DNA from: Nitrosospira multiformis ATCC 25196
GTDB lineage: Bacteria > Pseudomonadota > Gammaproteobacteria > Burkholderiales > Nitrosomonadaceae
Length of the DNA: 32,000 bases
Direction of reading: 5' to 3'
Assembly (NCBI RefSeq): GCF_000196355.1
Contig: NC_007614.1
Location: 810,001-842,000, forward strand
Position 1 is the first letter of the stretch. Each line of letters opens with the position of its first letter. Below are positions 1,376-24,223 of this stretch, one piece after another. The translations under genes and the position numbers were made by a program. The notes below the pieces were generated by a model. The model was not told where the DNA came from. It was given only the letters and a program-made list of their open reading frames with translations, and ran no database searches.

Positions 1376-2473
1376 ATGACAAGATTGAAGAACGATACCC
1401 TGCTCAGGGCCCTGCTGAGGCAACCTACTGAATACACGCCGGTTTGGCTCATGCGGCAGGCAGGACGTTATCTCTCCGAATATAATCAGACGAGGGCTCG
1501 TGCGGGCAATTTTCTCGCGCTCTGCAAGAATCCCGACTTCGCCACCGAAGTTACGATGCAGCCTCTAGCCCGATTTCCTTTGGATGCTGCCATACTGTTT
1601 TCGGATATTCTGACGATTCCTGATGCGATGGGATTGGGATTATATTTTGCGGAAGGAGAGGGTCCCAGGTTCGAGCGCCCCTTGCGCGAAGAGTGGGAGA
1701 TCCGGGCCCTTACCGTCCCGGATCCTGCTGTTCATTTGCGCTATGTCATGGACGCGGTTTCACAGATACGCAAGACTCTGGATAATCGGGTTCCGCTGAT
1801 CGGATTCTCCGGCAGTCCGTTTACGCTTGCCTGCTATATGGTGGAAGGAGCCGGCGGGACTGATTTCCGGCAAATAAAAACCATGCTGTACCGCCGTCCT
1901 GATCTGTTGCATCATATTCTCGATATCAATGCGCAGGCTGTCACCGCTTATCTGAACGCTCAAATCGAGTCCGGCGCGCAGGCAGTAATGATTTTTGATA
2001 CCTGGGGTGGCGCCCTTTCCCATGCCGCTTATCAGCAGTTTTCGCTGCGCTACATGACCCAGGTGCTGGCCGGGTTGAGGCGGTATCAGGGGGCTGAGCG
2101 TATTCCGAGCATTGTTTTCACCAAGGGCGGGGGGCTATGGCTCGAGAGTATCGCGGACAGCGGGTGTGATGCAGTGGGACTGGACTGGACGGTTAATATC
2201 GGAGACGCCCGGCGACGTGTGGGCCACAAAGTGGCCTTGCAGGGCAACCTGGATCCTGCCGTACTATTCGCCGAGCCGGGGGTAATTGCTGCCGAGGTGG
2301 AGCAGATCCTTGCGAGTTTTGGCGAAGGCAGTGGGCACATCTTCAACCTGGGACATGGCATATCGCAGTTTACGCCGCCCGAAAATGCGCTTACGCTGGT
2401 CGAGGCGGTTCACAGCCTCAGCCGCAGATTTCATCGTGCGGATGCAGAGGGAAACAACAGTTTCGGCAGCTAG
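1376..2473 (+). CDS. hemE: Uroporphyrinogen decarboxylase
   Basis: 365-aa ORF. It has the N-terminal [15 protein letters not shown] motif, [20 protein letters not shown], and a C-terminal IFNLGHGI motif, all characteristic of HemE/URO-D. Confidence 0.95.
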
Positions 2474-2506
2474 CGGATAAACAGAATTTTTCACCTCGAA
2501 TCTACA

Positions 2507-2522
2507 TGATATTTTGATATTT
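2507..2522. repeat. Perfect tandem 8-mer TGATATTT x2 upstream of the response regulator
   Basis: Read directly: TGATATTT at 2507-2514 and again at 2515-2522, about 30 bp upstream of the regulator start. It could be part of a promoter -10 region. Function is unknown. Confidence 0.4.
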
Positions 2523-2552
2523 CTGCAGGTCTGATTGTTTGGAACTCTTCAC

Positions 2553-3236
2553 GTGCGCATACTTATTATTGAAGATGATCGGGCAATAGCCAGTAATCTG
2601 TACGACTTTCTCGAAGCTCGCGGGCACAGTGTCGATGCCGCCGCTGATGGGATTACAGGGCTGCATCTTGCGGTTACCCAGCAGTTTGATGGCATTTTGC
2701 TGGATCTGGGATTGCCGGGTGCGGATGGTATAACACTATGCCGGAAGCTTCGTCAGGAAGCGCATCTCGATACCCCGGTCCTGATGCTGACAGCGCGCGA
2801 CACGCTGGAAGACAAGCTGAAAGGTTTCGATTGCGGGGCGGATGACTACCTGGTCAAACCCTTCGCCTTGAAAGAAGTTGAAGCGCGGCTGGTTGCCATG
2901 CACAAACGTCGCAAGGGCAAGGTAACCAGTCGAACCCTGGAAACCGAGGATCTTTCCTTCGATCCGAAAACTCTCACAATCCGCTTCGCGGGCGCGAACG
3001 TCAAATTGCCGCCGAAATGCATCGGCTTGCTTGCAGTCATCATGAGCGAGCCTGGCCGCGTTTTCAGTCGCAGGGAGCTCGAATCGGAAGTATGGGGGGA
3101 TGTGCAGGAAACCAGCGATACTCTCCGCAGTCACATGCACGAGCTTCGCCGCGCACTGACGCGCGCTGGGGGCTATGATCCAATCGAAACCGTTCACGGT
3201 CTCGGCTATCGGCTTTCCACGCGTGCCCGTAATTAG
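2553..3236 (+). CDS. OmpR/PhoB-family two-component response regulator
   Basis: The receiver domain shows IIEDD, LDLGLPGADG and LVKPF. The C-terminal winged-helix shows LTIRF...LPPKCIGLLAVIM...VHGLGYRL. The ORF is open from a TTG at 2535. A GTG at 2553 gives the canonical MRILIIEDD N-terminus, so the start is uncertain by 18 nt. Confidence 0.9.
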   Translation: MRILIIEDDRAIASNLYDFLEARGHSVDAAADGITGLHLAVTQQFDGILLDLGLPGADGITLCRKLRQEAHLDTPVLMLTARDTLEDKLKGFDCGADDYLVKPFALKEVEARLVAMHKRRKGKVTSRTLETEDLSFDPKTLTIRFAGANVKLPPKCIGLLAVIMSEPGRVFSRRELESEVWGDVQETSDTLRSHMHELRRALTRAGGYDPIETVHGLGYRLSTRARN

Positions 3237-4491
3237 GCGTGGGCTTCGCCTTCGTGTTGCACTTGCGTTTGCGATATTCTGTATTGTTGTTGTCGGAACG
3301 CTGGGTGTCAGTCTGTATATCGCTTCCGATGACATCGAAGAAGCTCATATCGAGCAGATCATCGAAACCGAGATGGATTATCTGCTCCAGCGCTATCGCG
3401 AGCATGTGGACTTCGTGCCGCAGGAAGGTTCCAATCTCGAAAAATACATCATCCACGATCCCTCCGAAGAATCTCGCCTTCCTTCCTATCTGCAGGGACT
3501 GAGTTATAGGCGGCACAAGGTTTTTCGCGGACCGGAGGAAGTGCGGGTCGCGGTCCATCACGTGGACGGGGTCAAGTTTCTTGTCGCCTATGAAATAGGC
3601 CTGCACGAAGCGCGGCAACGGGAATTGAAACTGCTCATCGTCCTGTCGCTCATTTCCGTCGTGGGTGTCGCTGTCGTGGTGGGATATCTGCTGGCCGGAG
3701 TGCTGGTCAAGCAGGTGACTGATCTCGCCGAGCAGGTGAGGCATCTCGCGCCGGGTGACATTCAGGGGGAAACGCTTACCCAGCCTGGGCAGGATGAGGA
3801 GGTGGCGCAGCTCGCTCGCGCGCTGGATGACTATCAAAGCCGTATAACCCGCATGCTGCGCAGGGAACAGGAGTTTACCGCCAATATAAGCCACGAGCTG
3901 CGCACTCCGATTACAACTATCCTGACAAGCTGTGAACTGCTGGTCGCGGAACCGAATCTGTCGGAAAGAGCGCGCATGCGCATCGGCATGATCGAAAGTG
4001 CCGCAACCCGCATGGGCGAGCAGTTGCAAGCCCTGTTATTTCTTGCGCGCGAGCAGTCGCTCGGGGTAATGGAACCCGTGGATCTGGCCGAGTGTGTCTA
4101 CGATGCGGCAGAATCGATATGCGGGGAGATCTATCGAAAGCATCTTACATTCGAAGTCACGGTGGAACCGAAAGCCATGCTGACGCTGAATCGGCAAGCG
4201 ATTCACACGGCTCTTGTGAATCTGCTGCGCAATGCGGTGCAATATACCAATAGCGGTTTCATACGGGTAAATTTCAAAGGCAATCGTCTTTCCATTTCCG
4301 ATTCCGGTATAGGTATTGAGCCTTCCTATCTGCCCCTCCTGTATGAACGCTTCTTCCGCGGTTCCACCCAGGGTGAAGGTCTGGGCATAGGGCTTGCCAT
4401 CGTAAAGCGCATCTGCGACTACTATGGATGGAGCATAGAAGTCGAAAGCATGCCCGGACAAGGCGCGACCTTCCATATTGTGTTTCCCTGA
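3223..4491 (+). CDS. Sensor histidine kinase (two TM segments, periplasmic loop, HAMP, HisKA, HATPase_c)
   Basis: The H-box is SHELRTPIT, the N-box is LLRNAVQYT, G1 is DSGIGI and G2 is GEGLGIGLAIV. Two hydrophobic segments (LRVALAFAIFCIVVVGTLGVSLYIA and LLIVLSLISVVGVAVVVGYLLAGVLV) flank a loop of about 110 aa. The start is either GTG 3223, a 14-nt overlap with the regulator, or ATG 3175. Confidence 0.9.
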   Translation: MPVIRRGLRLRVALAFAIFCIVVVGTLGVSLYIASDDIEEAHIEQIIETEMDYLLQRYREHVDFVPQEGSNLEKYIIHDPSEESRLPSYLQGLSYRRHKVFRGPEEVRVAVHHVDGVKFLVAYEIGLHEARQRELKLLIVLSLISVVGVAVVVGYLLAGVLVKQVTDLAEQVRHLAPGDIQGETLTQPGQDEEVAQLARALDDYQSRITRMLRREQEFTANISHELRTPITTILTSCELLVAEPNLSERARMRIGMIESAATRMGEQLQALLFLAREQSLGVMEPVDLAECVYDAAESICGEIYRKHLTFEVTVEPKAMLTLNRQAIHTALVNLLRNAVQYTNSGFIRVNFKGNRLSISDSGIGIEPSYLPLLYERFFRGSTQGEGLGIGLAIVKRICDYYGWSIEVESMPGQGATFHIVFP

Positions 4492-4692
4492 CCCTCGTTT
4501 TTCCTGGAGAAAGTCATTTCCCTGCAGGTTTCCCTGACTGCGCCGACATAGCGGAAGCTCTACAGTTGCCGCTATTCGATCTTCTGCAAAATCCGCGCTT
4601 TGCGGACTATTTCCATCAATTTCTCCTTCCTGAAGACGCCACTTCTTAGTGAGCGGATCGCCGGGATGCCTGTCTCATCCTTTAAGGGTGCT

Positions 4693-4739
4693 TGTTTAAA
4701 CTCTGTTTATCGAGGTATTTATCTTCACGAATTCTTCAC
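4693..4739 (+). promoter_or_regulatory. Candidate winged-helix regulator binding region: two pairs of direct repeats with 11-bp periodicity
   Basis: TGTTTA occurs at 4693-4698 and 4704-4709. TCTTCAC occurs at 4722-4728 and 4733-4739. Both pairs are spaced exactly 11 bp start-to-start, one helical turn, which is the geometry used by OmpR/PhoB-type regulators. The function is inferred, not shown. Confidence 0.3.
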
Positions 4740-4762
4740 AGGGCGTGTGTTAATTTGATGGG

Positions 4763-4786
4763 TGAGTAAATACCTGAGTAAATTCC
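4763..4786. repeat. Tandem 12-mer TGAGTAAATACC / TGAGTAAATTCC in the dabA leader
   Basis: Read directly: two adjacent 12-mers with 11/12 identity. They lie between a possible -35 (TTGATG, 4755-4760) and a possible -10 (TAAATT, 4779-4784), about 95 bp upstream of the dabA ATG. Confidence 0.55.
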
Positions 4787-4880
4787 TCTGTTATTTTAAG
4801 TTAATGAATCGAGTTTATTTTAGTTAAAGGGAATCCTATCAACAGGTCAGAAGGCGTCACGAAGAAGAGGAGTAAAAATT

Positions 4881-7628
4881 ATGCCAGCAGCAATAGACAA
4901 AGATGAAAATATTCAGAAAGAGGGAAAGAGGATCGAGTTGGTGAAGGATTCTCCAAAACAGTTTGCAGCTTCCGGTGCCGCCGCGGTAAGCGCACAGCCT
5001 AACTCGGATAAACTGGCGGATGTCAGTCCTCTGCACGCGGAGCGGACTGTAGCCCAAGCGCAGGAAGCCTCCGTTTCTTCCTTCAATGAAGAGGAAGTGA
5101 TCCATGACCTGCAGCACTATCTGCCCTCGCAGGCTCCGCTGAAAGACTTTATTCATCATAATACATTACACGCATTCCAGAACTATCCCTTCCATGAGGG
5201 AACGCGTCGCGCAAAAAAAATATTCGGATATTTTCCCTCTCTTCAACTTCGTGAATATAGAGACCTGTACGAAGCCGGGCGTATCCGCAAGGATATTCTT
5301 GAGCGAGTTATCTCCGAGCAGAAGGGCGCGCAGCATCTGGAGGATTGGATGCAGCGGCTGCTTGAGAAGGAATATGACGATTCCGTTTCCCCACGAATAG
5401 GCAAACTGAGGGCGAACTGGAAGCGCCATTATCCTATTGACCTGGACCTGATGGTTCATCCGCTTCTGTTCAGAATCCTGTGCAGCTACCTCGATCAGGG
5501 AATTTCAATATGGGGTTTCCCCATAGGGCACAAGGGTTTTCTTGCGGCCTTGAAGGAAATGGAAGAAAAAAGCTTTGCCAGTTTCTTCAAGACGAAGAGA
5601 GCTAAAAAGCTTTTGGTGTCTGGAAACTGCAAGATGGCGGATCTGCTGAAGCTCCTGGTGGGGGATGAAACCCTCTATGCGCAGTATCTGTTTGACCAGC
5701 AGTTCGCGCACCCGGGTTGGTCGGGCATGGTAGCTTCCGTCGAGGCCCAGCCTGCCTCTCTCCTGAACCCGAAGAACATTACCGTTCATGACCTGGTTGT
5801 CTTCGAGCTTTTGCTTGAGATTGACGCGCTCGATTCCTATTTCGGAGAAAGTTGGGAGCCCATTGCCCACATTCTGGAAGAGCGGCCGGAACCTTTGTTC
5901 GCCGATGTGCCCGAGACTGAGGTCGATACGGTTTTCTCCCTTTGGCACGATGCTTTTGAGTGGACGTACTATGACCAGGTGTTGACTGGAATCGCTTTGC
6001 AGGACAAGACCTGGGAAAGAAAGATCGAAAACAGAAGTTTCCAGACGTACTTCTGTATCGATGACCGGTTGACATCGTTCCGCCGTTACCTCGAGCAGCT
6101 GGATCCGGATTGCGAAACGTTCACCACCGCCGGATTTTTTAACGTCGAACTGTATTATCAACCCGAGAACGGCAAGTTTTACACGAAATGCTGTCCCGCG
6201 CCGGTTTTCCCCAAATTCCTCGTCAAGGAAATCGGTAACAAGCAGAAGATAAAGAAGGAGGTACATTTTTCCAAGCTCACGCATTCGCTTTTCCAGGGCT
6301 GGTTTATCTCCCAAACGATCGGATTCGTGTCGGCCCTGAGGCTAGCCTTGAATGTGTTCAAGCCGGGCTCGATGCCCGCCGGAGCCTCCTCTTATACCCA
6401 TGTGGACAAGAACGCGACGCTCACCATCGAAAACAAGGACCCGAACGACAAGGAAAACGGTTTGCAGATCGGGTTTACGATTGACGAGATGGTCCAGCGC
6501 GTTCAGGGTGTCCTGACCAGTACGGGCTTAAACGGGGTAGATAAAACCTTTGCTCCCATCGTTTACATGATTGGCCACGGCGCATCCAGCGTAAACAACC
6601 CTCACTATACCGCCTATGACTGTGGCGCATGCGGGGGCCGCCCGGGATCGGTGAATGCCAGGACATTCTGTTACATGGCCAACCATCCCAAGGTAAGGGA
6701 AGCGCTCAAGGAGCGGGGCATCATTATTCCGCCCACTACCCAGTTCCTCCCGGGTCTGCACGACACCACGCGTGACGAAGTCGCCTTCTTCGATGAAGAG
6801 ATTCTCTCCGAGGAAAACGCTGGAAAACACAGGAGGAATACGCTGGTCATCAATGAAGCGCTCGATCTTCACGCGAAGGAGCGGTCCAGAAGGTTGGTAT
6901 CCATTGATACCAAAATGAGTCCCAAGGAGATTCATGAGGAAATTCGGAGGAGATCGGTTTCGTTGTTCGAACCCCGGCCGGAGCTCAATCATGCGACTAA
7001 TGCGGTAAGTATTATCGGCAGACGGAGCATTACGGAAAACCTCTTCCTGGACAGGCGGGCGTCCACGAGCACCTATGACTACCGCACTGATCCTGAAGGT
7101 AAGTTCCTCACCATGTCCATGGGTCCCATTGCGTTGGTTATGGGCGGTATCGACCTCGAGTATTTTTTCTCCCGGACCGACAATCACAAAATGGGTGCCG
7201 GAACGAAACTGCCGCACAACGTCATGGGTCTGATCGGGGTGGCTAACGGCGCGGATGGCGATTTGAGGACAGGGCTTCCCAGCCAGATGATCGAGATCCA
7301 CGATCCGGTCCGTCTCCTGGTCATCATCGAACACTATCCCGATGTGGCATTGAAGGTGATCAAGTCGCAGACGGCAAACTATTCGTTTTATGAAAACTAC
7401 TGGGTGCATTGTTTGGCGCTGCATCCGGACACCGGTGAGCTTTGGCTGTACAAGGACGGTAGTTTCTCGAAGATTTACAAGCCGCTGTTAAACGATCTGG
7501 AAACCGTATCGGATCTGAGCGCACTGATGGAACGGGCTAAGAAAGCGGAATCCATCGAAACCCTGGATGCGGTTCAAGAGAATTTACCTGTCTACTTTAT
7601 CGAGAAGAAGGAGAGAGTGAAAAAATGA
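4881..7628 (+). CDS. dabA: DUF2309/UPF0753 family protein, DabA-like subunit of a DAB inorganic-carbon pump
   Basis: 915-aa ORF with an ATG start and AGGAG 9 nt upstream. It has the family-typical PLKDFIHHNTLH motif and FCIDDR, which gives Cys392 and Asp394. It also has MIGHGASS...YDCGACGG, which gives His566 and Cys581. The spacing (C-x-D, about 172 aa, H-x14-C) matches the beta-carbonic-anhydrase-like zinc site reported for DabA. It is immediately followed by, and overlaps, a NuoL-like gene. Confidence 0.88.
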   Translation: MPAAIDKDENIQKEGKRIELVKDSPKQFAASGAAAVSAQPNSDKLADVSPLHAERTVAQAQEASVSSFNEEEVIHDLQHYLPSQAPLKDFIHHNTLHAFQNYPFHEGTRRAKKIFGYFPSLQLREYRDLYEAGRIRKDILERVISEQKGAQHLEDWMQRLLEKEYDDSVSPRIGKLRANWKRHYPIDLDLMVHPLLFRILCSYLDQGISIWGFPIGHKGFLAALKEMEEKSFASFFKTKRAKKLLVSGNCKMADLLKLLVGDETLYAQYLFDQQFAHPGWSGMVASVEAQPASLLNPKNITVHDLVVFELLLEIDALDSYFGESWEPIAHILEERPEPLFADVPETEVDTVFSLWHDAFEWTYYDQVLTGIALQDKTWERKIENRSFQTYFCIDDRLTSFRRYLEQLDPDCETFTTAGFFNVELYYQPENGKFYTKCCPAPVFPKFLVKEIGNKQKIKKEVHFSKLTHSLFQGWFISQTIGFVSALRLALNVFKPGSMPAGASSYTHVDKNATLTIENKDPNDKENGLQIGFTIDEMVQRVQGVLTSTGLNGVDKTFAPIVYMIGHGASSVNNPHYTAYDCGACGGRPGSVNARTFCYMANHPKVREALKERGIIIPPTTQFLPGLHDTTRDEVAFFDEEILSEENAGKHRRNTLVINEALDLHAKERSRRLVSIDTKMSPKEIHEEIRRRSVSLFEPRPELNHATNAVSIIGRRSITENLFLDRRASTSTYDYRTDPEGKFLTMSMGPIALVMGGIDLEYFFSRTDNHKMGAGTKLPHNVMGLIGVANGADGDLRTGLPSQMIEIHDPVRLLVIIEHYPDVALKVIKSQTANYSFYENYWVHCLALHPDTGELWLYKDGSFSKIYKPLLNDLETVSDLSALMERAKKAESIETLDAVQENLPVYFIEKKERVKK

Positions 7629-9517
7629 CGATGCCGCTGCTAACCTCGCTGCTTGGGTTATTCATAATCATCCCGCTGATCGGGTTTGGGCTCACCATGC
7701 TCGTGCCGAAAAAGAATGAGGATGCCATTTCCTGGATAGCCTACTCCACTGTCGGTTCGCACATGGTTTTGGCCTGGATATTCCTGGTCCTCTGGCTCTT
7801 CAGCGGCTACCCGACGCTCGAGACAATTGAGCTTATCCTGTATAACACGGAAAGTTACAAGTTTTTCATTTCATTCTATTTCGACAAAATTACCGCGGTT
7901 TATCTGTTCGTCGGTTCTTTCCTCTGCTTTCTGGTTACCGTCTACTCCAGATGGTACCTTCATCGCGAAAGGGGCTATAAGCGGTTTTTCAACACCATCC
8001 TGTTCTTTTTCATCGGCTACAACATCATCATTTTCTCCGGTAATTTCGAGACGCTCTTTATCGGTTGGGAAGTTCTGGGAATCACGTCCTTCCTCCTGAT
8101 CGGGTTCTACAGGGAGCGGTATCTGCCGGTAAAAAATGCGCTCAAGGTATTCACGGTGTTTCGCGTGGCGGATATGGGTTTGATTCTGGTCATCTGGATG
8201 AGCCATCATCTGTGGCACGAAAACATCACGTTCTCCAAGCTCATGCATCCGGAACTGGTTGCACAGACTCTTGAGGGCAACACGACACTGGGGATTTTGA
8301 TCGGATTGATGCTCCTGCTGGCGGCCGCCGTGAAATCGGGTCAACTCCCGTTTTCTTCCTGGGTGCCCAGAGCAATGGAAGGCCCGACCCCGTCGAGTGC
8401 AATCTTTTACGGATCGCTCTCGGTTCACTTGGGCGTCTTTCTTTTGCTGAGAACGTTCCCATTCTGGGAAAATCAGATCGTTGTGGTAGCGCCTGTGATT
8501 CTTCTTGGCGTAGGGACTGCCGTAGTCGCGACCCTTATTTCACGCGTACAGTCCTCGATCAAGACGCAGATCGCCTACTCTTCGGTGGCGCAGATCGGCA
8601 TCATTTTCGTGGAAGTGGCGTTAGGGTTTTATGATCTTGCCTTGATCCATTTGGCAGGAAATGCATTCTTGCGGACGTATCAGCTTCTGGTCTCGCCATC
8701 GGCCGTGACCTTCCTGCTTCGCGATCAGTTCTACAACTTTGTTCCAAGGGAATACATCGACAAGCATTCCACATCCAAGCAAATCGAGTATGCGGCCTAT
8801 ATGCTGAGCGTGAAGGAGTTCAACCTCGATTCGTTCATGTATTTCTTCTTCTGGGATCCCGTGAAATGGATCGGCCGGAAGCTGAACCTGGTGTTATCCG
8901 GAACGGGTGGTTTCATTATCGCCACCACACTTTTCCTCGTCGGCCTCGCCTGCCTCTACTACGAGCAGTCTTTACCGGTCGGTGTCCAGCAATTCCTGCC
9001 GACGCTATTTGCCTTCATCGCCCTGATCGTCGTGCTGAAGTCTTTCTCGGAAAGAATGAGTCCCCAGTTGAGCTGGTACTTCGTCATCATGAATCATCTC
9101 TGGGTCGCACTCGCCATCTCGTTTTATGACGAAGTGACGACCCGGGAGATTGTCATTTATATAAGTGGCATCCTCCTTTCAGGCCTTGTGGGATACGCTT
9201 GTCTGGCACAACTGAAGTCACTTGAGCCGAAGGTGGATTTGAAGGAACCTCAGGGTCAGGGTCATGTCTATGAATATCCTACACAGGCTTTCATTTTCCT
9301 GCTTGCGTGTCTGGGCCTGATGGGTTTTCCTATTACGCCATCGTTCCTGGGGATAGATCTGATCTTCACCCACATTCACACAGACCAGATCGTATTTGCA
9401 TTCATTCTCGCACTGAGTTTCATCATCGTCGGTCTCTCCTTGGTGAGAATATATTCGCGGGTTTATCTTGGACCTCATGTTAAAACTTACCATGCCGTCC
9501 CCTTCAAAAACTCGTGA
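7625..9517 (+). CDS. dabB: NuoL/MnhA/ND5-type (proton-conducting membrane transporter, PF00361-like) subunit, DabB-like
   Basis: 630-aa polytopic membrane ORF. FIGWEVLGITSFLLIGFY carries the TM5-type Glu (E149, nt 8069-8071). AAAVKSGQLPFSSWVPRAMEGPTPSSAIFYGSLSVHLGVFLL carries the TM7-type Lys (K237, nt 8333-8335). QIAYSSVAQIGIIF is also present. All are hallmark NuoL/ND5 motifs. The start ATG overlaps the dabA stop as ATGA at 7625-7628. Confidence 0.88.
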   Translation: MTMPLLTSLLGLFIIIPLIGFGLTMLVPKKNEDAISWIAYSTVGSHMVLAWIFLVLWLFSGYPTLETIELILYNTESYKFFISFYFDKITAVYLFVGSFLCFLVTVYSRWYLHRERGYKRFFNTILFFFIGYNIIIFSGNFETLFIGWEVLGITSFLLIGFYRERYLPVKNALKVFTVFRVADMGLILVIWMSHHLWHENITFSKLMHPELVAQTLEGNTTLGILIGLMLLLAAAVKSGQLPFSSWVPRAMEGPTPSSAIFYGSLSVHLGVFLLLRTFPFWENQIVVVAPVILLGVGTAVVATLISRVQSSIKTQIAYSSVAQIGIIFVEVALGFYDLALIHLAGNAFLRTYQLLVSPSAVTFLLRDQFYNFVPREYIDKHSTSKQIEYAAYMLSVKEFNLDSFMYFFFWDPVKWIGRKLNLVLSGTGGFIIATTLFLVGLACLYYEQSLPVGVQQFLPTLFAFIALIVVLKSFSERMSPQLSWYFVIMNHLWVALAISFYDEVTTREIVIYISGILLSGLVGYACLAQLKSLEPKVDLKEPQGQGHVYEYPTQAFIFLLACLGLMGFPITPSFLGIDLIFTHIHTDQIVFAFILALSFIIVGLSLVRIYSRVYLGPHVKTYHAVPFKNS

Positions 9518-10122
9518 TCATGAAACCATGATGAAAGTGGGAATGGATAGACAGATGTGATGACGAAATGAAAGGCGCCGGCTTGAACCCCAGGAAATCA
9601 GAAGCCATGCGAGAGAAATCCCGGGATAAAGTCGGCGCTCAACGGGGTGTGAAAAAGGCTCGGAAAAGGAGTGTTATCAGGAAATAAGGAGGGATCTGAG
9701 TAATGAATAATAAGTGAACGCCTCAGAAGGTTTGGGAAGATGTTGTCGCTCGTCCGCGAGGGAAGTATAGAGCATAGACAAATTCATCTCTGATCGACTT
9801 AGCGCACGCACCTACGCCTCATCAGAGGCAATAAAAGACAAAGTATGCGAAACCTCACACTTCAAAAGAAAAAAGATGCGGGAGTGTCGTGGGTGTAGAG
9901 GGGGAAAAGGGAAATGCAGGATGATACTCCGTACTTTGAGCAACTCCTCTGAAAGGGGATGGAATAAAGTATGAATTTTATCACAAATGTGAAGACGTAT
10001 GGCGCAGGTCACGAAAACCTGGTGGTTGAGATGAATACACAGGTGTTTTATAGAAGAAAAATACCACGCATGAGGCTCTTCAAACCCTCTGGATAAGCCT
10101 GTCCTAAGAAACCTGGCAGACG

Positions 10123-10142
10123 AATGGAAATTAATGGAAATT
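10123..10142. repeat. Perfect tandem 10-mer AATGGAAATT x2 upstream of the SulP gene
   Basis: Read directly: copies at 10123-10132 and 10133-10142, 55 bp upstream of the SulP ATG. It is followed by an A/T-rich stretch (TTTGAGATTTTTTTATTCAGGATATTTAAAAATCC). Function is unknown. Confidence 0.55.
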
Positions 10143-10196
10143 TGAGATTTTTTTATTCAGGATATTTAAAAATCCAACTAATGGGAGCTATCACTG

Positions 10197-11858
10197 ATGA
10201 GTTCAGCTAATGCATCTACTGCTTCTACCGCTAAACTGACAGTACCGAAAGATGGTCTGGCGGGGATGATGCAGAATTTGAAATACGATTTCACTGCGGG
10301 TTTTTTCGTATTCCTGCTGGCGTTGCCTTTGAGCCTGGGTATTGCGAAGGCGGGAGATTTCCCTCCTGCGATGGGTGTTCTTACGGCCATGATCGGCGGG
10401 GTGCTGGTCGCCCTCTTGGCCGGTTCGCCGCTTACCATCAAAGGGCCTGCGGCGGGTTTGATTACAATCGTCGCAGGGTGTGTTGCCGAAGTCGGCGGCG
10501 GCCCGGAAGGGTGGAAGATGGCCTTGGGCGTCATGGTAGTAGCGGGTGCGCTGCAGGTCGTCATCGGCTTTATGAGAGCAGGTTCACTTAGCGATTTCTT
10601 TCCGTTATCCGCGGTACATGGAATGCTGGCTGCGATCGGGCTTATCATTATTTCGAAGCAGGCGCACATCCTTCTCGGAATAGACCCGGCGACACTGGCG
10701 GGAATGGGACCCGTGAAGCTGTATGCGCAACTCCCTAATTCCATCATGAATCCGAACGTGCCTGTAGCGATAGTCGGGATACTTAGTCTGATTGTCCTAT
10801 TTGGGTTGCCGAAGATAAAAAGTCCACTAGTGAAGAAAATTCCAGCTCCAATGGTGGTATTGCTGATAGCTATCCCCGCTGCCATCGCACTGGATTTCAA
10901 GGGGACGCAACCTGGACACATACTCGTTCATATTGGCGATTTCTGGAAGGAAATTACTTTCAATGCTGACTTCTCACAGATTGGAACGGGTGCATTCTGG
11001 AAATATGTGATCATGTTCCTGCTGGTAGGGAGCCTGGAGTCCTGCCTTACCGTCAAGGCGATTGACAGTCTCGATCCCTGGAGGCGTCAGTCGAATTTCA
11101 ACAAGGACTTGATCGCTGTTGGCACGGGTAATACGCTTGCTGCGGTACTCGGTGGATCGCCCATGATATCGGAAGTCGCACGCAGCTCGGCAAATGTAGG
11201 CTTCGGTGCACGCACCCGCTGGGCCAATTTCTTCCACGGCTTCTGCCTCTTTATATCGATGCTGCTCTTGATCCCTGTGATCGAGATGATTCCGAATGCC
11301 GCCCTGGCAGCCATGCTGATTTTCGTCGGCTATCGCCTGGCCTCGCCGCACGAGTTTTTCAAGACCTACAAGATCGGCAGCGAGCAGTTGACGATCTTCC
11401 TGGTGACGATTGCGGTGACAGTCGCCAGCGACCTGTTGATGGGTATCGGAGCAGGTATTCTCGTCAAATTCGTCTTCCATATCGTAAATGGCGCATCGCT
11501 CGGCAACCTTTTCTCGGCGCGCTATCAATTGAAGCAGACGGGAAATCAGTACTATATGAACGTTCAGGATGCCGCAATATTTTCCAACCTGATCGGCTTC
11601 AAGAAAGTACTGGCCAGGTTTGAACCCAAAAAGGAAGTCGTTCTTGACTTCAGCCAGGCAACCCTGGTCGATCATACCTTCATGGAATTCCTGGAGCATT
11701 TCGAAGAGCAATATGTCGAAAACGGCGGTACCGTGACGGTGACTGGCTTCGATCGCTTCCAACCTTTCTCAGCCCATCCGCTCGCGGGAAGAAAGGCGAA
11801 GAAGGAAAAAGTCAGCGCTACCGCGCCCTCGCTTGATGGTAGCACGTCGAGGGAGTGA
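10197..11858 (+). CDS. SulP-family inorganic anion transporter with a C-terminal STAS domain
   Basis: 553-aa ORF with GGGAG 11 nt upstream of the ATG. The N-terminal LKYDFTAGFFVFLLALPLSLGIAKAGDFPPAMGVLTAMIGG is typical of SulP/SLC26. It has about 10-12 hydrophobic segments. The C-terminal roughly 120 aa (YYMNVQDAAIFSNL...VVLDFSQATLVDHTFMEFLEHF) resembles a STAS domain. The substrate cannot be read from the sequence. Confidence 0.88.
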   Translation: MSSANASTASTAKLTVPKDGLAGMMQNLKYDFTAGFFVFLLALPLSLGIAKAGDFPPAMGVLTAMIGGVLVALLAGSPLTIKGPAAGLITIVAGCVAEVGGGPEGWKMALGVMVVAGALQVVIGFMRAGSLSDFFPLSAVHGMLAAIGLIIISKQAHILLGIDPATLAGMGPVKLYAQLPNSIMNPNVPVAIVGILSLIVLFGLPKIKSPLVKKIPAPMVVLLIAIPAAIALDFKGTQPGHILVHIGDFWKEITFNADFSQIGTGAFWKYVIMFLLVGSLESCLTVKAIDSLDPWRRQSNFNKDLIAVGTGNTLAAVLGGSPMISEVARSSANVGFGARTRWANFFHGFCLFISMLLLIPVIEMIPNAALAAMLIFVGYRLASPHEFFKTYKIGSEQLTIFLVTIAVTVASDLLMGIGAGILVKFVFHIVNGASLGNLFSARYQLKQTGNQYYMNVQDAAIFSNLIGFKKVLARFEPKKEVVLDFSQATLVDHTFMEFLEHFEEQYVENGGTVTVTGFDRFQPFSAHPLAGRKAKKEKVSATAPSLDGSTSRE

Positions 11859-11895
11859 TGCCTGACCAGCAAACTTCGTAATAAAAGTAATAGAG

Positions 11896-11934
11896 GCACG
11901 GTGGACCGTATCTTCGGTCCATCGTGCTTTTTTT
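11896..11934 (+). terminator. Rho-independent terminator downstream of the SulP gene
   Basis: GCACGGTGGACCG (11896-11908), loop TATCTT, then CGGTCCATCGTGC (11915-11927). This gives a 13-bp stem with one G.U pair, followed by T7 at 11928-11934. It lies 38 nt after the stop codon. Confidence 0.8.
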
Positions 11935-12029
11935 GCTCAGGGAAAAGAATGTATCGCAACTTTTATGATACGCAGTGCCCTGTTTCGTACTGCCTGTATC
12001 GAAGGGGGAAGTAAGTGGATTGGAAACCG

Positions 12030-12971
12030 CTACTGGATTTTTGTCCGGGAGGAAGAAGACGGAATACGATTCGTATTTAACGAAGCGATGAGTTTATGGT
12101 AGAGGTCAATGCGACGTACGCTCACCTCGCTCTCCCGCATTGCATTCGCCAATGCGCACCCTGGTTCGCCTGAATGGCGGCAGTTATTGAACTTGCATTT
12201 GCCGATGTAGGGACGAAATTCCCTGAATCCCCAAGCGATAGCTTCAATGCTCAGATGCTGCAAGCCGAACTGCTGAATTCCCGGAGAATCTATGATACGG
12301 GCATTCCTGTCGAGATGATAGAGCCGCGCATGAGTTGTCGTGTGGCGACCTGCGTCGAGGGTGGGGGAAATGTCGCCAGTGGCACGCTCAGCGTCAGGAA
12401 CAAGCGCATTGATGATGGTGGATTTTCCCATACCGGACTGACCCACCAGTACACTGAGATTGTCTTCGAGATAGGGCAGCAGGGGTTTTACGTCGTTTCT
12501 GGCACTGATAGGCAACAAAGTATAGTCGAGTTCCCGATAGAGTGAGAGTCCGTTCAAGGCAACTTTGCTAGGCCCTAGCAGGTCTGTCTTGTTGAGGACG
12601 ATCAGAACACTGAGCTGCTGGCTTTCGGCGGCAACCAGGCAGCGATTTATCAGCTCCTCACTGAAGCTTGGGACTGGCGCCACTACAATGATTACCTGCG
12701 TGGCATTGGCTGCAATGAGTTTTTCGCGGGAGAGATCACTACGGTATAAAAGGGCGCTACGCGGCAAAATCCTTTCGATAACCCCCTGCTCAGACGCCGT
12801 TTGATAGATTTCAACCCAATCGCCGCATGCCGCCCCACTCTTTTTTCCGCGCAACACGCATGTGAGCGTCGATTCATCCGCGGTTTTAACGAGGAAATGC
12901 CTGCCGAAGGCCGCTACGATTTCTCCACGAAGGGGAGGGGAGGTAACGGATGGGCGGCCAGGCGATCTCAA
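12030..12971 (-). CDS. rsgA: Ribosome small-subunit-dependent GTPase A (RsgA/YjeQ)
   Basis: Circularly permuted GTPase motifs are present: LNKTDL (G4) comes before GQSGMGKSTIINAL (G1). The C-terminal zinc-finger motif is CKFNNCRHSGEPGCA. The only plausible start is a TTG at 12971, overlapping the upstream gene's TGA. Confidence 0.88.
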   Translation of the reverse strand: MRSPGRPSVTSPPLRGEIVAAFGRHFLVKTADESTLTCVLRGKKSGAACGDWVEIYQTASEQGVIERILPRSALLYRSDLSREKLIAANATQVIIVVAPVPSFSEELINRCLVAAESQQLSVLIVLNKTDLLGPSKVALNGLSLYRELDYTLLPISARNDVKPLLPYLEDNLSVLVGQSGMGKSTIINALVPDAERATGDISPTLDAGRHTTTHARLYHLDRNARIIDSPGIQQFGLQHLSIEAIAWGFREFRPYIGKCKFNNCRHSGEPGCALANAMRESEVSVRRIDLYHKLIASLNTNRIPSSSSRTKIQ

Positions 12972-15258: not shown

Positions 15259-15339
15259 GTCGGACCGATATAAAAAAATCCCGGGACTAGGCAGGCTATT
15301 TCCGTACCTCATTTTTCAACTTCTCAGGAAAGATTGAGC

Positions 15340-17898
15340 ATGTCGAAAGGCACCTTGTTTACCATTGCTGTCACCCCGAAGATACCGCCTCGGCTGGCAC
15401 GTCTCGAAGACCTTGCCAACGATCTGTGGTATAGCTGGGATCGAGCCACGCGCTCGCTGTTCTCACGCCTCGACCCAAGTCTGTGGGGAGCCGTCGGGCA
15501 TAATCCGAAGGCTTTCCTCAAGCGGGTGGATGAAACGCTGCTGCTCAAGGCAGCCGAAGATCAGGTTTTCCTGGCCAATTACAATAGCATAGTATCCGCT
15601 TATGACTATTATCATTCGGAGACGTTGTGGAATGGCATCGATGCGAGCCTGAATCCGAGCGACAAGATCGCCTATTTCTGCTTCGAATTTGGTTTTCATG
15701 AGAGTTTCCCGATTTATTCGGGAGGACTTGGCATTCTGGCAGGGGACCACTGTAAGGCCGCCAGTGACTTGCGCCTGCCATTGATCGGCATCGGCTTGCT
15801 CTACCGTCAGGGATATTTCTTCCAGACGATCGATAACCAGGGGAATCAGCAGGTCATTTATGCTGATTCGGATTTTTCGGATTTGCCTGTTGCGCCCGTT
15901 CTGCGGGAGGATGGATCTGAAGTAAGAATAAAAGTGGAATTGCTGCAACGCCCGGTGGCGATAAAGGTCTGGCGGGCAAAAATAGGACATGTAAGTCTGT
16001 ATCTGCTGGACACGGATCTCCCTGAAAACTCACCCGGCGATCGCGACATCACACATCAGCTCTATGGGGGGGACAGAGTGATGCGCATCGAGCAGGAGAT
16101 CGTGCTTGGCGTGGGCGGGATCCGCGCTCTACGAGAAATGGGCATCGAGCCGACGATATGGCATATCAATGAAGGCCATGCGGCTTTCATGATGCTCGAG
16201 CGCATTCGCGGCCACGTGCAGCAAGGCCTGGATTTTCCCGCGGCGCTCGAAGCTGTAGCCGCAAGCACCGTATTTACGACTCATACGGCAGTGCCGGCCG
16301 GCCACGATCACTTCAGCGACGACATGATGAATGCCTATTTTGAGCCGTTCTATCGTGATCTCAAAATTACACGCGAGGACTTTCTCGCGCTTGGGCGTGT
16401 CCCGGGGAGTGATGATTTCAACATGACCGATCTCGCCATCCGGGCTTCGCGCTATCAGAATGGTGTAAGCAAGATCCACGGGAATGTATCTGCGCGCATC
16501 TGCAAGGATGTATGGCCGCAGATCGAGCCGGAAGAAAATCCGATGTCATACATCACGAACGGAGTGCATGTTCCCACGTTTCTCGCGCAGGAATGGGCCG
16601 ACCTGTTCGACCGCTACCTGGGATACGAGTGGCGCAATAACATGTGCGATACAGAATACTGGTCGCGCATCGATACCATTCCTGATCATCTATTCTGGAG
16701 TGTCCGGCAAACTCTGAAATCCCAAATGTTCTATGGCATACGCGCGCGCCTCACCACGCAGAATGCCCGGAATCATGGTTCCGAAGCGCATCTTGACCGG
16801 CTTCTGCGCTTTACCGATCCTATTAATCCGAACATCCTGACACTCGGCTTTGGCCGGCGCTTCGCCACCTATAAGCGCGCGACCCTGCTATTCGAGGATC
16901 TCGATTGGTTGCGCAGAATCATGCTTGACCAGGAACACCCGGTGATGATCGTCTTTGCCGGAAAAGCGCATCCTGCCGACGTGCCTGGACAGGATTTGAT
17001 CCGGAGAGTGAGCGAGATTGCGCGAATGCCCGAATTCGAGGGCCAGATTCTCCTGGTCGAAGATTATGATCTCCGCCTTGCCCGTCGTCTGGTGGCCGGC
17101 GTGGACGTATGGATCAACAGTCCCGTGTATCCATTGGAAGCAAGCGGAACCTCAGGCATGAAGGCAGGCATAAACGGAACCATCAATCTGAGCGTCCTCG
17201 ATGGGTGGTGGGGGGAAGGCTATGACGGAAAGAATGGCTGGGCCATCAAGCCGGGACCCGAGAATATGGATGCAGTGCGTCGCGACAAGGAGGAAAGCAA
17301 GGATTTTTATGAAACGCTGCAGGATCACGTAGTCCCCCTTTACTATAACCGCGATAAGCTGGGCTATTCTTCGGGCTGGGTAAAGATGGCCAAGAACTCG
17401 ATGAAGTCGCTGTTGCCGCGTTACAACGCCACCCGCATGATAACCGAATACACCATGAAGTTTTACCTGCCGGCAAAAAAGCAGGGCGCGCTTTATGCGG
17501 CGGATGACTTCAGCAATGCAAGGAAGATAGCCGCTTGGAAAGCGTTCGTAAGAGAAGCATGGCCAGGGGTTACGATCCGACGCCTGGATAAGCCTTTCAG
17601 CCAGATCAGCTTCGGGGAGGCAGTGGATTTTCGTGTTGCCGTCCGGTTGAACGGGTTACATCCGGAGGATGTGGTGGTCGAACTGCTGATCTGTCGTCGA
17701 TTGAAAAAGACTACGCTATGCTCGTTCAAGCACGTCCGCTTCCAGTTCAGGGGTATCGAGGAAGAATCGGCGGAGCACCTGTTCGAACTGGACCATACGC
17801 CCGATTTGTGTGGCAAGCTGGACTACTATATCCGGGTTTATCCCTATCATGCCTTATTGACCCATCCATTCGAGATGGGCATGATGGTGTGGCTGTAG
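15340..17898 (+). CDS. glgP: Alpha-glucan (glycogen/maltodextrin) phosphorylase, GT35, DUF3417-N-terminal type
   Basis: About 852 aa. The N-terminal LARLEDLANDLWYSWD is DUF3417-like. GGLGILAGDH is present. The PLP-lysine motif is EASGTSGMKAGINGT. The ATG at 15340 lies two codons inside the TTG-initiated ORF. Confidence 0.88.
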   Translation: MSKGTLFTIAVTPKIPPRLARLEDLANDLWYSWDRATRSLFSRLDPSLWGAVGHNPKAFLKRVDETLLLKAAEDQVFLANYNSIVSAYDYYHSETLWNGIDASLNPSDKIAYFCFEFGFHESFPIYSGGLGILAGDHCKAASDLRLPLIGIGLLYRQGYFFQTIDNQGNQQVIYADSDFSDLPVAPVLREDGSEVRIKVELLQRPVAIKVWRAKIGHVSLYLLDTDLPENSPGDRDITHQLYGGDRVMRIEQEIVLGVGGIRALREMGIEPTIWHINEGHAAFMMLERIRGHVQQGLDFPAALEAVAASTVFTTHTAVPAGHDHFSDDMMNAYFEPFYRDLKITREDFLALGRVPGSDDFNMTDLAIRASRYQNGVSKIHGNVSARICKDVWPQIEPEENPMSYITNGVHVPTFLAQEWADLFDRYLGYEWRNNMCDTEYWSRIDTIPDHLFWSVRQTLKSQMFYGIRARLTTQNARNHGSEAHLDRLLRFTDPINPNILTLGFGRRFATYKRATLLFEDLDWLRRIMLDQEHPVMIVFAGKAHPADVPGQDLIRRVSEIARMPEFEGQILLVEDYDLRLARRLVAGVDVWINSPVYPLEASGTSGMKAGINGTINLSVLDGWWGEGYDGKNGWAIKPGPENMDAVRRDKEESKDFYETLQDHVVPLYYNRDKLGYSSGWVKMAKNSMKSLLPRYNATRMITEYTMKFYLPAKKQGALYAADDFSNARKIAAWKAFVREAWPGVTIRRLDKPFSQISFGEAVDFRVAVRLNGLHPEDVVVELLICRRLKKTTLCSFKHVRFQFRGIEEESAEHLFELDHTPDLCGKLDYYIRVYPYHALLTHPFEMGMMVWL

Positions 17899-17972
17899 GT
17901 TTCCTCATCTGCCCCTGTCTTCTTCTCTACCTGCCTCTGTCCGTCGTGCAGATAGGGTCCTTGCGTTGGGGC

Positions 17973-19463: not shown

Positions 19464-19680
19464 GGCTTTTTCCGTTTACTGTTCATTGTGGGGAGCTGGA
19501 CTTAACTCGGGCGGGGAGCATAGGCATATCGCTATGGGGCGCCCGTATGCTGAGGACCATTATTGATTATTGCCGCAGCATTACCAGGGAAACTCTAAAC
19601 AAAGCCTCCGTCGCGCCTGTGAGGGATTTGTTCAGGGGTTCCCAGGGCTATGGACTTGTCTCGAGGATCAACCTGCTCCC

Positions 19681-21921: not shown

Positions 21922-21985
21922 GTATCGATTATAACGTGGATAGTCAGGGTAGCGAGGGCGGCAACTGCATACGAGCAGGACCGAT

Positions 21986-22174
21986 TTACACAATGGGCGC
22001 GAGATTTTTGCCAAGAAACTGCGAGAGCAGAGCGTGGAGCTGGAAGCAACGCTGCAGTTTTCGCGGGGCATCGTCAGGAAGGTCGAACGCAATATTGCCT
22101 GTCATATGGCAAAGGGCAGAGAGAATATGTTCAAGTTCGCGCTCAGTCATGATGCACTGGAGCAGGCCTTGCAT
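21986..22174 (-). CDS. Hypothetical small protein (very uncertain)
   Basis: 62-aa ORF ([35 protein letters not shown]...) upstream of glgB. I see no convincing Shine-Dalgarno sequence and do not recognise a family. Confidence 0.2.
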
Positions 22175-22306
22175 TGCCGGTGGCGCATATCGTTGTCCAT
22201 TTTCACTGCATACGCGCAGCGTGTTCCGTGCTGCGGGAGTTTTCCAAATCGGGGCTGCGTCAGTCCGGGCAATTGCGAGCCTTCTCGGATTTGGGATCGT
22301 CTCTTT

Positions 22307-22528
22307 TTAATGATCAGTACATAAGTAGGAGAGAACGTTGTCGTCCTGCTCTAGCATTTCTTCCAAGTGGGCCGCGTTCTCTTCTTTCACGTCGATAAAC
22401 GCCAGATCATGCTTACCGTTATAGCGCTGGACCGCATCTCGCCACGAGCCGTCGCATGCAAGGGCTAGAGCATTTACTGCAAAAGACTTCTGATTGTTGG
22501 CGAAGATGATTTTGTAGCTTCTGGCCAC
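22307..22528 (-). CDS. Hypothetical small acidic protein
   Basis: 73-aa ORF with a GTG start, preceded by AGAGGAGAAGCAAA, a good SD about 8 nt upstream. I do not recognise a family. Confidence 0.45.
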   Translation of the reverse strand: MARSYKIIFANNQKSFAVNALALACDGSWRDAVQRYNGKHDLAFIDVKEENAAHLEEMLEQDDNVLSYLCTDH

Positions 22529-22901
22529 TTTGCTTCTCCTCTTGATTTGGCTTGGTTAATCGGTTGCTGCAGGATTCACACTGCACAGGAACATGATTGT
22601 TGTCCCAGGAGGGAAAGAGGGATATTTTAGGAGCGGAGAGATGTCCAAAATCGCGCTAACAGCTTATCGCGCATCCCTGCACAATAATTTTTTCGCTATG
22701 CTATTTTAGCCCGTTCCGCAATGACTTTGGCAATCTCAGGCTTGGCCTGGGGGCACTCCATGAGAGGAGCAGGCGGAGAAGAAACAGTCAGGCCAGACAA
22801 GGCGCTTGCGCTTCCTTCAATTTAGCTGCAGAAAACTGCTGCAACTGCAGTAATATAATGATAAAAGAGTCGCCCATGCGACAATTCAAGGGAGGTTGTG
22901 A

Positions 22902-24179: not shown

Positions 24180-24223
24180 TAGAAACGGAGCTGGATAAGG
24201 TTGATCAAACAGGTGTGCGAGAT

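Follow-up and report, generated by a model that had tools for sequence, protein, structure and literature searches.

A putative dissolved-inorganic-carbon uptake cassette from a distinct branch of the DAB family in Nitrosospira multiformis

The 32,000-nucleotide stretch of the Nitrosospira multiformis ATCC 25196 genome analysed here (contig NC_007614.1, positions 810,001 to 842,000 of the forward strand; the whole stretch is called the window below, and position 1 is its first letter) carries two adjacent genes, dabA and dabB, whose products belong to the DAB/MpsAB family. On comparative grounds we consider it fairly likely that the locus is a DAB-family system for the uptake of dissolved inorganic carbon (DIC), that it represents a distinct branch of that family, referred to here as His-type, and that it is made up of at least three components, namely DabA, DabB and a SulP-family anion transporter encoded downstream. 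An original prediction, made from the sequence alone, had seen a two-gene pump with the architecture of the Halothiobacillus neapolitanus system. The pairing of PF10070 with PF00361 on which it relied was borne out, with PF10070 matched over its full length and all four zinc ligands equivalent to those of DabA2 kept, while the architecture turned out to be different in several respects.

Among non-photosynthetic autotrophs, the principal CO2 pumps known are DAB complexes, which are also candidates for use in engineered carbon fixation. DAB/DAC genes have already been counted at survey level in the genomes of ammonia oxidisers (PMC10880623) and Bacteroidetes homologues were noted by Fan et al., so their presence alone is not new. 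Our literature search found no paper on the DabA of Nitrosospira, and no description of the split into His-type and Leu-type proteins, of the DabB residue set or of the SulP-DabA fusion described below. The three genes that carry the argument are the following.

4881-7628, forward strand: dabA of the His-type branch, zinc enzyme subunit resembling beta-carbonic anhydrases (915 amino acids, aa; full-length PF10070)
7625-9517, forward strand: dabB of the His-type branch, NuoL-like membrane subunit with a putatively ion-conducting part (transmembrane segments, TM, 1-11) and a divergent C-terminal half (630 aa; PF00662 and PF00361)
10197-11858, forward strand: SulP-family anion transporter with a weak STAS-like C-terminus (PF00916, E = 1e-55)

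In the scheme that we favour, CO2 diffusing into the cell would be hydrated by a cytoplasmic DabA, at its buried Cys-His-Cys(Asp) zinc site, and DabA would be docked on DabB by a membrane-inserted two-helix elbow. Cation flow, most likely of H+, through the NuoL-like DabB would make the hydration effectively one-way and bicarbonate would accumulate. SulP would provide a parallel route for external bicarbonate, probably in physical association with the pair, and an OmpR-type two-component system encoded upstream would probably turn dabA on through a TTCAC-N6-TTCAC box, placing the cassette under low-DIC control. The active site would have the hydrogen-bond donor of canonical beta-carbonic anhydrases (His704) in place of a leucine, with an elbow that lacks an acid. 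The path in DabB would comprise Glu149, which matches the TM5 glutamate of NuoL, a TM12-like acid of its own (D578), Tyr262 with the invariant His268, and Asn346/Arg350 on TM11.

The zinc enzyme DabA and two branches of the family

The two co-oriented open reading frames (ORFs) lie where they had been predicted, and the stop of dabA and the start of dabB share an ATGA at 7625-7628. A GGAGAG ribosome-binding site is found 8-9 nt upstream of the dabB start, and a conserved one, AAGAGGAG, at the start codon of dabA. The Pfam search that had been suggested as a check matched DabA to PF10070 with 707.9 bits (E = 2.2e-212) over profile positions 1-747 of 747, and alignment to PDB 9rd0_A, i.e., DabA2 (E = 2.9e-54), brought the zinc ligands and the NNPH..DCGACGG loop into register. 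The ligands C351/D353/H524/C539 of DabA2 are C392/D394/H566/C581 in the window DabA, and R396 is also kept, giving the type II beta-carbonic anhydrase (CA)-like site made of Cys, Asp with Arg, His and Cys. Among the 150 nearest DabA representatives (the best of 3,600 family representatives, 50% clusters) the residues of this site are kept, barring a few divergent or truncated sequences. All the motifs previously claimed for DabA were located, PLKDFIHHNTLH at residues 86-97, FCIDDR at 391-396, GHGASS at 565-570 and YDCGACGG at 579-586. The coupling loop NNP(x5)DCGACGG is present as NNPHYTAYDCGACGG (residues 572-586), and the lid motif reads TTAGFFN, its DAB1 counterpart being GI(A/G)GFFG. The protein had been described as soluble-looking, which has to be qualified by a hydrophobic two-helix stretch (~465-492) that aligns with the membrane-inserted elbow or finger of the solved DABs.

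A separate branch is seen in the DabA tree (neighbour-joining, 436 columns, 23 sequences), which divides in two with a bootstrap of 1.0. We have compared the window proteins with H. neapolitanus DabA2/DabB2 and eight further plasmid-borne pairs; the Leu-type set comprises H. neapolitanus, Acidithiobacillus, Marichromatium, Thiodictyon, a Staphylococcus MpsAB-like pair, Azospirillum, Pantoea, Phaeobacter, Nocardia and a haloarchaeon. The window protein falls in the His-type branch, where RPExxH and an elbow without Glu were found in 13/13 sequences, against RPEW[GA]L together with the elbow Glu in 10/10 of the Leu-type. His704 of the window DabA (motif SLFEPRPELNH) aligns with Leu658 of DabA2 and Leu825 of the Thermocrinis albus DabA, and Gln478 occupies the position of the DabA2 elbow Glu444. 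Position 704 is His in essentially all the full-length sequences among the 150 representatives. Other signatures of the His-type are FIHHNTLH, FCIDDR, RPE[LYW][NG]H, the elbow without acid and the gene order dabA-dabB. Those of the Leu-type are VAVNP, FCID[VTP]R, the elbow Glu, DW..RPEW[GA]L and a DabB of 492-551 aa, with the order dabB-dabA in 8/8 loci read (H. neapolitanus DAB2 and seven others), often behind a divergent LysR gene. The motif DW(xxx)RPEWGL places DAB1 among the Leu-type (Phillips et al. 2026, 10.64898/2026.05.01.722082).

These positions are the ones on which present models of coupling rest. Leu658 is described as strictly conserved among 150 homologues of DabA2 (Lo et al. 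2026, PMC13144422 / 10.64898/2026.03.13.711513), and in both 2026 structural papers a conserved active-site Leu (strictly or broadly) stands in for the Gln or His hydrogen-bond donor of ordinary beta-CAs. The changes E444A and E444Q in DabA2 abolished DAB2 activity, and Glu444 completes the proton path (Lo et al. 2026, PMC13144422). Both structures base their coupling models on residues (Leu658/Leu825, Glu444 and the TM8 His of DabB) that are not present in the His-type branch. This branch takes in all 150 of the nearest family representatives and extends to Bacteroidota of soils, to Acidobacteriota and to both nitrite and ammonia oxidisers. It offers a natural "mutant series" with which to ask how a carbonic anhydrase becomes vectorial.

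The comparison with DAB2 (H. neapolitanus DabA2/DabB2, PDB 9RD0; Desmarais et al. 2019; Lo et al. 2026) shows a shared PF10070 and PF00361 core, with the Cys/Asp/His/Cys ligands and Arg, the GFF lid, the NNPH..DCGACGG loop and the hydrophobic elbow in DabA, and the TM6 Arg/Asp, the TM7 Lys and the first TM11 His in DabB. The C-terminal 485 aa of DabA are 32% identical to DabA2, whereas the N-terminal 380 aa could not be aligned by BLASTP. The H. neapolitanus architecture proposed for the locus does not hold in other respects. The gene order is inverted, with an OmpR-type system upstream and no LysR, where the DAB2-type has dabB-dabA and commonly a divergent LysR. DabA lies in a separate deep branch, with SLFEPRPELNH in place of DW..RPEWGL, and DabB is about 80 aa longer (630 aa against 551), its C-terminal half being different, unrelated-looking and provided with a TM12-like acid of its own. 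Leu658 and Glu444 of DabA are replaced by His704 and Gln478 and the TM8 His of DabB by Tyr262, and there is a SulP partner. DAB1 (DabABC of T. albus and H. neapolitanus; Phillips et al. 2026), compared by the motifs printed in the paper, is alike in its vectorial-CA design, buried beta-CA site, elbow insertion and NNP..DCGACGG loop, and differs by Leu825 where the window has His and by the essential DabB His229 where the window has Tyr. No DabC-like ORF follows the window dabB, and the 680-bp spacer behind it holds only a 41-aa ORF.

The AlphaFold2 model of DabA has a confidence (pLDDT) of 71, with residues 1-65 disordered. These residues (window 4881-5075, pLDDT ~30) form an N-terminal extension specific to Nitrosomonadaceae, whose start, IDKD.N.QKE..I.LVKDS.K, is conserved, including in a Nitrosomonas metagenome-assembled genome (MAG; locus L009), and is absent in the Nitrotoga and Bacteroidota homologues.

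The membrane subunit DabB and its predicted ion path

The assignment of the 630-aa protein to the NuoL/ND5/MnhA family stands for its N-terminal ~360 residues and fails for the remainder. Pfam gives PF00361 (E = 9e-37) and PF00662, and the protein is 31% identical to Escherichia coli NuoL over 363 aa (147 bits), compared with 26% to DabB2 (69 bits). Foldseek fits the DabB model (pLDDT 78) to NuoL at a root-mean-square deviation of 2.5 Å over 356 columns. TM1-11 are homologous to those of E. coli NuoL and mitochondrial ND5, with E144, R175, D178, K229 and H334 kept. The differences from NuoL are a cytoplasmic insertion of ~60 residues after TM11, the end of homology at ~366, a C-terminal half that cannot be aligned, the absence of the full 16-TM architecture and of the long lateral helix HL, and the lack of complex I genes nearby. 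In a small tree with NuoL/M/N and the Leu-type DabBs, all the DabBs and NuoL came together against NuoM/N (88%), with support divided, 49% against 33%, on whether the two DabB groups are sisters. The identity of DabB rests on its constant pairing with DabA, not on phylogeny. This adjacency was kept in every related locus that was fetched and long enough (Nitrosospira, Nitrosovibrio, Nitrosomonas, several Bacteroidota and a spirochaete) and is far beyond chance. Within the species, the window proteins are 97-98% identical to those of N. multiformis strains Nl7, Nl12 and Nl18.

The charged and polar residues along the membrane path compare as follows.

TM5: NuoL E144; window DabB E149; DabB2 I151
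TM6: NuoL R175 / D178; window DabB R180 / D183; DabB2 R182 / D185
TM7: NuoL K229; window DabB K237; DabB2 K235
TM8: NuoL H254; window DabB Y262; DabB2 H260 (T. albus H229)
TM8, next turn: NuoL T260; window DabB H268; DabB2 Y265
TM11: NuoL H334; window DabB H342; DabB2 H339
TM11: NuoL H338; window DabB N346; DabB2 H343
TM11: NuoL K342; window DabB R350; DabB2 K347

The TM8 His is needed for function in both DAB2 and DAB1, where its change to Ala abolishes activity. The window residues E149, R180, D183, K237, Y262, H268, H342, N346 and R350 are invariant in an alignment of 34 sequences at 58-81% identity, and the same nine persist in the DabB proteins of Saprospiraceae and the spirochaete, at identities as low as 34%.

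The C-terminal half of DabB is conserved across the clade. Residues 350-630 gave no match to PDB sequences even at E <= 10, and residues 375-630 no direct profile match to NuoL or DabB2. In a distant His-type locus on a Bryobacterales-type contig (L033:4409-11300), the membrane part is split into a 451-aa protein like the N-terminal half of NuoL and a 400-aa protein like the C-terminal half of NuoM. Residues 502-627 of DabB match this second protein (hhalign probability 91%, E = 1e-6), which in turn corresponds to the C-terminal half of a NuoM-like subunit (TIGR01972 positions 207-484, E = 2e-32). The split suggests that the 630-aa DabB represents two subunits in condensed form. Some distant His-type loci have, in place of a DabC, a second PF00361 protein. 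In the model there is a broken helix at 552-566 / 572-583, and position 578 within it is Asp or Glu in 34/34 sequences, position 577 being Glu in 18/34. The K399/D400 site of NuoL is vacated in the DabB of DAB2 and filled by Glu444 of DabA (Lo et al. 2026, PMC13144422). From weak profile matches we infer that D578 may sit at this position and that the second half-channel of the His-type would stay inside DabB, which would account for the missing elbow Glu in His-type DabA.

The SulP partner and the competing readings

The description of the pair as a self-contained two-gene module could not be upheld, because members of three phyla have a SulP gene next to the His-type pair, and Saprospiraceae have it fused to dabA. 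SulP adjoins dabAB in the Nitrosospira and Nitrosovibrio loci with long enough contigs, in a Nitrosomonas MAG (L011), in Arcicella and other Bacteroidota, where its identities (56-67%) track those of DabA and DabB, and in Nitrotoga, Rhodocytophaga and Bryobacterales (Acidobacteriota, 8 nt upstream of dabA in L033). Among the eight Leu-type loci whose neighbourhood was read, SulP adjacency was found in 0/8. In Saprospiraceae, SulP and DabA form a single protein of 1390 aa (SulP 22-394, DabA 556-1323) in a cluster of seven sequences, six of them full-length. In one of the genomes (MAG JANQWK010000022.1, L029:6001-12602) the fusion gene is followed by one for a 622-aa DabB with overlapping start and then by one for a 181-aa weak beta-CA. 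The fusion places DabA at the cytoplasmic end of SulP, in agreement with the topology. Fusion and adjacency in three phyla argue for a functional linkage, and from this context the SulP protein is probably a bicarbonate transporter and the third component of the module.

The weak beta-CA of the Saprospiraceae locus (Pro_CA, 26.1 bits) has no obvious signal peptide, and a conventional CA beside a putative vectorial one is puzzling. Longer SulP partners of 719-745 aa (~170-190 aa more) were found in a Bacteroidota MAG (L014:4636-6813), in Nitrotoga (L031:10894-13053) and in Rhodocytophaga (L032:3261-5498), and the Nitrotoga extension has TarH/4HB_MCP-like matches.

Several known systems resemble this arrangement in part. 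SulP transporters joined to a beta-CA are known, and Felce and Saier are said to have described such SulP-CA fusions in 2004. They follow the same logic, but the enzyme fused in Saprospiraceae is DabA, not a small beta-CA, and has an ion-conducting DabB beside it. Cyanobacterial BicA has in common with the window protein the SulP core and a STAS-like tail. The cyanobacterial NDH-1(3/4) CO2-uptake modules (CupA/B, NdhF3/F4, NdhD3/D4) share the concept of Zn-dependent CO2 hydration with a NuoL-like subunit; CupA/B are however unrelated to DabA, there are no NDH-1 genes in the window, and the window DabB reaches 102 bits with the NdhF3 model, less than the 225 bits obtained with that of NuoL.

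The nearest relatives of DabA, DabB and SulP outside Nitrosomonadaceae and Nitrotoga are in Bacteroidota of the Cytophagales type (~57-67% identity), and other proteobacterial DABs are ~26-32% identical to the window proteins. This indicates that the whole cassette has probably been exchanged horizontally between phyla. The GC content of the cassette (0.47-0.53) is slightly lower than that of the flanks (0.52-0.58), with no clear island, and a composition so slightly shifted would mean that the exchange is old.

A number of observations weigh against the reading of the locus as a three-part DIC uptake system. The activity of the His-type is extrapolated from relatives that are ~30% identical, and we identified, provisionally, no tested His-type member, the tested homologues of B. 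anthracis, V. cholerae and thermophiles lying outside the comparison. Two positions at which changes inactivate known DABs (DabA2 E444 to A or Q; DabB2 H260 or T. albus H229 to A) are naturally substituted here, so that the canonical proton route cannot be assumed, and Arg350, which replaces the TM11 Lys, is a poor proton carrier. The homology at TM12 rests on weak profile matches (NuoN E = 9e-4, NuoM E = 0.04, NuoL none). The DabA model is of low confidence at the active-site loops, and Foldseek found for it no match at E <= 0.001 in a copy of the PDB older than the 9rd0 release. SulP is far below the cut-off of the NCBIfam BicA equivalog (108.7 bits, cut-off 880) and its family carries many anions. 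No SulP lies beside the pair in Spirosoma, the spirochaete, one unassigned locus and one Nitrosomonas MAG; no TTCAC box precedes sulP, and the link between box and regulator is drawn from sequence. In addition, the RuBisCO of N. multiformis, which we take to be of form IC and non-carboxysomal, means that accumulated bicarbonate would need a further step to aid carbon fixation.

In the Nitrosomonas MAG that lacks SulP, a gene for a ChrA-family transporter (PF02417; L009:5804-7006, reverse strand) is divergent from dabA, in the place of the two-component system. Chr-family proteins have been reported as bicarbonate carriers (PMC10880623).

A bolder form of the three-part reading seems to us possible but rather doubtful. 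In it, His-type DabA, DabB and SulP would make up a mechanistically distinct, physically coupled supercomplex that hydrates CO2 and transports bicarbonate, with a canonical CA site, its catalytic His included, and an ion path lying wholly in DabB (TM5 Glu, TM7 Lys, TM8 Tyr/His, TM11 His/Asn/Arg and a TM12-like Asp), to which the DabA elbow would not contribute as it does in DAB2. If it were true, gating, coupling ion and even direction could differ from DAB1 and DAB2, and the models of a "strictly conserved Leu" and an "elbow Glu" would cover only one half of the family. The SulP fusion suggests an unrecognised link of CO2 hydration to bicarbonate transport. The cassette also bears on the puzzle of ammonia-oxidiser genomes that have both DIC transporters and cytoplasmic CAs (PMC10880623).

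The alternative that survives best, although unlikely, is that of a plain DAB2-like proton-coupled vectorial CA of two genes, as in the original prediction, whose residue differences would be neutral drift and whose SulP and two-component neighbours would be unrelated to it. Family membership and the intact zinc ligands agree with it, some His-type loci lack SulP, and the elbow of DAB1 has been argued not to reach the proton path (Phillips et al. 2026, 10.64898/2026.05.01.722082). Drift, however, is hard to reconcile with differences that are fixed, co-varying signatures of a branch with 100% support, invariant over 34-150 sequences, or with the loss of function that E444Q and the TM8 His to Ala change bring about in the solved systems; the fusion and the adjacency in three phyla argue, besides, that SulP is functionally linked.

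Somewhat less likely still is a bicarbonate-transport metabolon, in which SulP would transport, the His-type DabA would be an essentially conventional CA tethered to the membrane, bringing CO2 and HCO3- into equilibrium on the cytoplasmic side of the transporter, and DabB would serve as anchor and/or recycle the co-transported cation. In its favour, His704 brings back the hydrogen-bond donor that canonical beta-CAs and CsoSCA have and DAB1 and DAB2 lack. The Saprospiraceae fusion joins DabA to the cytoplasmic C-terminus of SulP, on the pattern of the known SulP-CA fusions, and a further weak beta-CA lies in that operon. But DabB is found in every locus with its invariant chain of charged residues, unexpected for a mere anchor, and the GFF lid and the NNP..DCGACGG loop, the contacts to DabB in the solved structures, are conserved. 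DAB2 with L658Q stayed inactive in vitro (Lo et al. 2026, PMC13144422), and several His-type loci have no SulP.

We regard as improbable a Na+-coupled system like MpsAB, in which Tyr262, Asn346 and Arg350 of DabB would reflect Na+ instead of H+, or a cation translocator generating membrane potential as proposed for Staphylococcus aureus MpsA. S. aureus MpsAB(C) (Fan et al. 2019) is likewise a bicarbonate-supplying pair of the DabA/DabB family, present in heterotrophs as are the Bacteroidota relatives of the window genes. MpsAB is argued to use Na+, the central His/Lys chain is altered here to residues less fit for proton hopping, and the NCBI name of the Saprospiraceae fusion is "Na-translocating system protein MpsB". 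NCBIfam has no DabA model, so that the NCBI names "YbcC family" and "MpsB" say nothing about the subfamily. The Staphylococcus plasmid pair that we have taken as a stand-in for S. aureus MpsAB is Leu-type, with the order mpsA-mpsB, an MpsA of 492 aa without the TM5 Glu, TM6 Arg/Asp and TM7 Lys, and H-H-K on TM11; it is no nearer to the window proteins than DAB2, and the name accordingly carries no weight. We found no motif for Na+ binding, and Nitrosospira is a soil and freshwater organism. The stand-in pair itself, in a Staphylococcus pettenkoferi plasmid (NZ_CP066063.1, L027:1024-7636), lies with a small downstream gene between two IS6 transposases on a mobilizable plasmid and is a mobile DAB cassette.

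That the 630-aa protein belongs to complex I or to an Mrp antiporter, as a stray subunit encoded apart from its complex and with DabA next to it by accident, is very improbable in spite of the higher score of its N-terminal half against NuoL/ND5 than against DabB2 and of its database annotation as NADH-ubiquinone oxidoreductase subunit 5, because its NCBIfam scores are far under the cut-offs (225 bits for the NuoL equivalog, cut-off 556; at best 116 bits for the MrpA models, cut-off 937), the C-terminal half and lateral helix of NuoL are absent, dabB shows translational coupling with dabA and stands beside it in all the related loci, and no nuo or mrp genes are near. As had been claimed, the window has no further antiporter-like (nuo, mrp or hyd) gene, since tblastn with NuoL/M/N and DabB matched 7625-9517 only and the Pfam matches of the other large ORFs agree.

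Upstream regulation and neighbouring genes

The features found around the three genes are the following.

2535-3236, forward strand: OmpR/PhoB-family response regulator, candidate regulator of dabA (Pfam Response_reg and Trans_reg_C)
3175-4491, forward strand: sensor histidine kinase with two TM segments and a periplasmic loop of ~100 aa (Pfam HisKA and HATPase_c)
4724-4739, forward strand: direct-repeat box TTCACGAATTCTTCAC (TTCAC-N6-TTCAC, 11-bp pitch), then a conserved GTGTTAATTT (possible -10)
9971-10096, forward strand: small conserved ORF of 41 aa (MNFITNVKTYGAGHENLVVEMNTQVFYRRKIPRMRLFKPSG; MNFITNVK...LFKPSG) in the dabB-sulP spacer

Synteny places the response regulator gene upstream of dabA in the loci of Nitrosospira and Nitrosovibrio and in some of those of Nitrosomonas. 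Two-component systems of the OmpR type are likewise found beside His-type dabAB in Spirosoma, in Rhodocytophaga and in one other locus. The hydrophobic segments of the kinase are at ~26-49 and ~152-176 of the translation. Its ORF overlaps the end of that of the response regulator by 62 nt (3175-3236), and the true start may be further downstream.

When nine of the otherwise diverged intergenic regions upstream of dabA were aligned, the only block surviving was TTCACGAATT[C/T]TTCAC followed by GTGTTAATTT (4724-4756). Each of 13 Nitrosomonadaceae loci has a single exact copy of the 16-mer box, in every case upstream of dabA; two of the 13 have no adjacent two-component system. Within the window the exact match of the box is unique. 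With their 11-bp pitch and their place at -35, the two TTCAC repeats have the geometry that is classic for OmpR/PhoB activator sites, and it is because of this that we take the OmpR/PhoB-type regulator as the protein that would bind the box. This names a putatively regulated DIC-uptake cassette and a candidate cis-element in nitrifiers without carboxysomes. A second box before sulP was considered, a one-mismatch match on the opposite strand (9703-9718), and rejected as a regulon signal since it is kept only in the N. multiformis group. Scans of 2300-12100 found fewer sigma-70-like promoter matches than in shuffled sequence, and terminator-like structures in numbers no higher than in the shuffles, with none in the dabB-sulP spacer. 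The Rfam scan of the window gave no matches.

The 41-aa ORF ends ~100 nt upstream of sulP, and is open and preceded by a ribosome-binding site in the Nitrosospira and Nitrosovibrio loci examined. Its homologues vary between 40 and 50 aa by in-frame indels, with the ends MN.IT and F.PSG* kept; a leader peptide and a small protein are both conceivable. Loci of the Arcicella type have, between dabB and sulP, a DUF2490 gene whose product bears a signal peptide (L017:12488-13312, with equivalents in L018 and L021). We considered the 680-bp spacer of the window as a remnant of such a gene and discarded the idea, as tblastn found nothing. ORFs with signal peptides upstream of dabA in Bacteroidota were also set aside, not being conserved between genera and having no counterpart in the window. 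Farther downstream (15334-25924) there is an unrelated glycogen cluster, made up of a DUF3417/phosphorylase-type glucan phosphorylase gene, glgA and glgB on the reverse strand, glgC and a gene for a GH57 enzyme.

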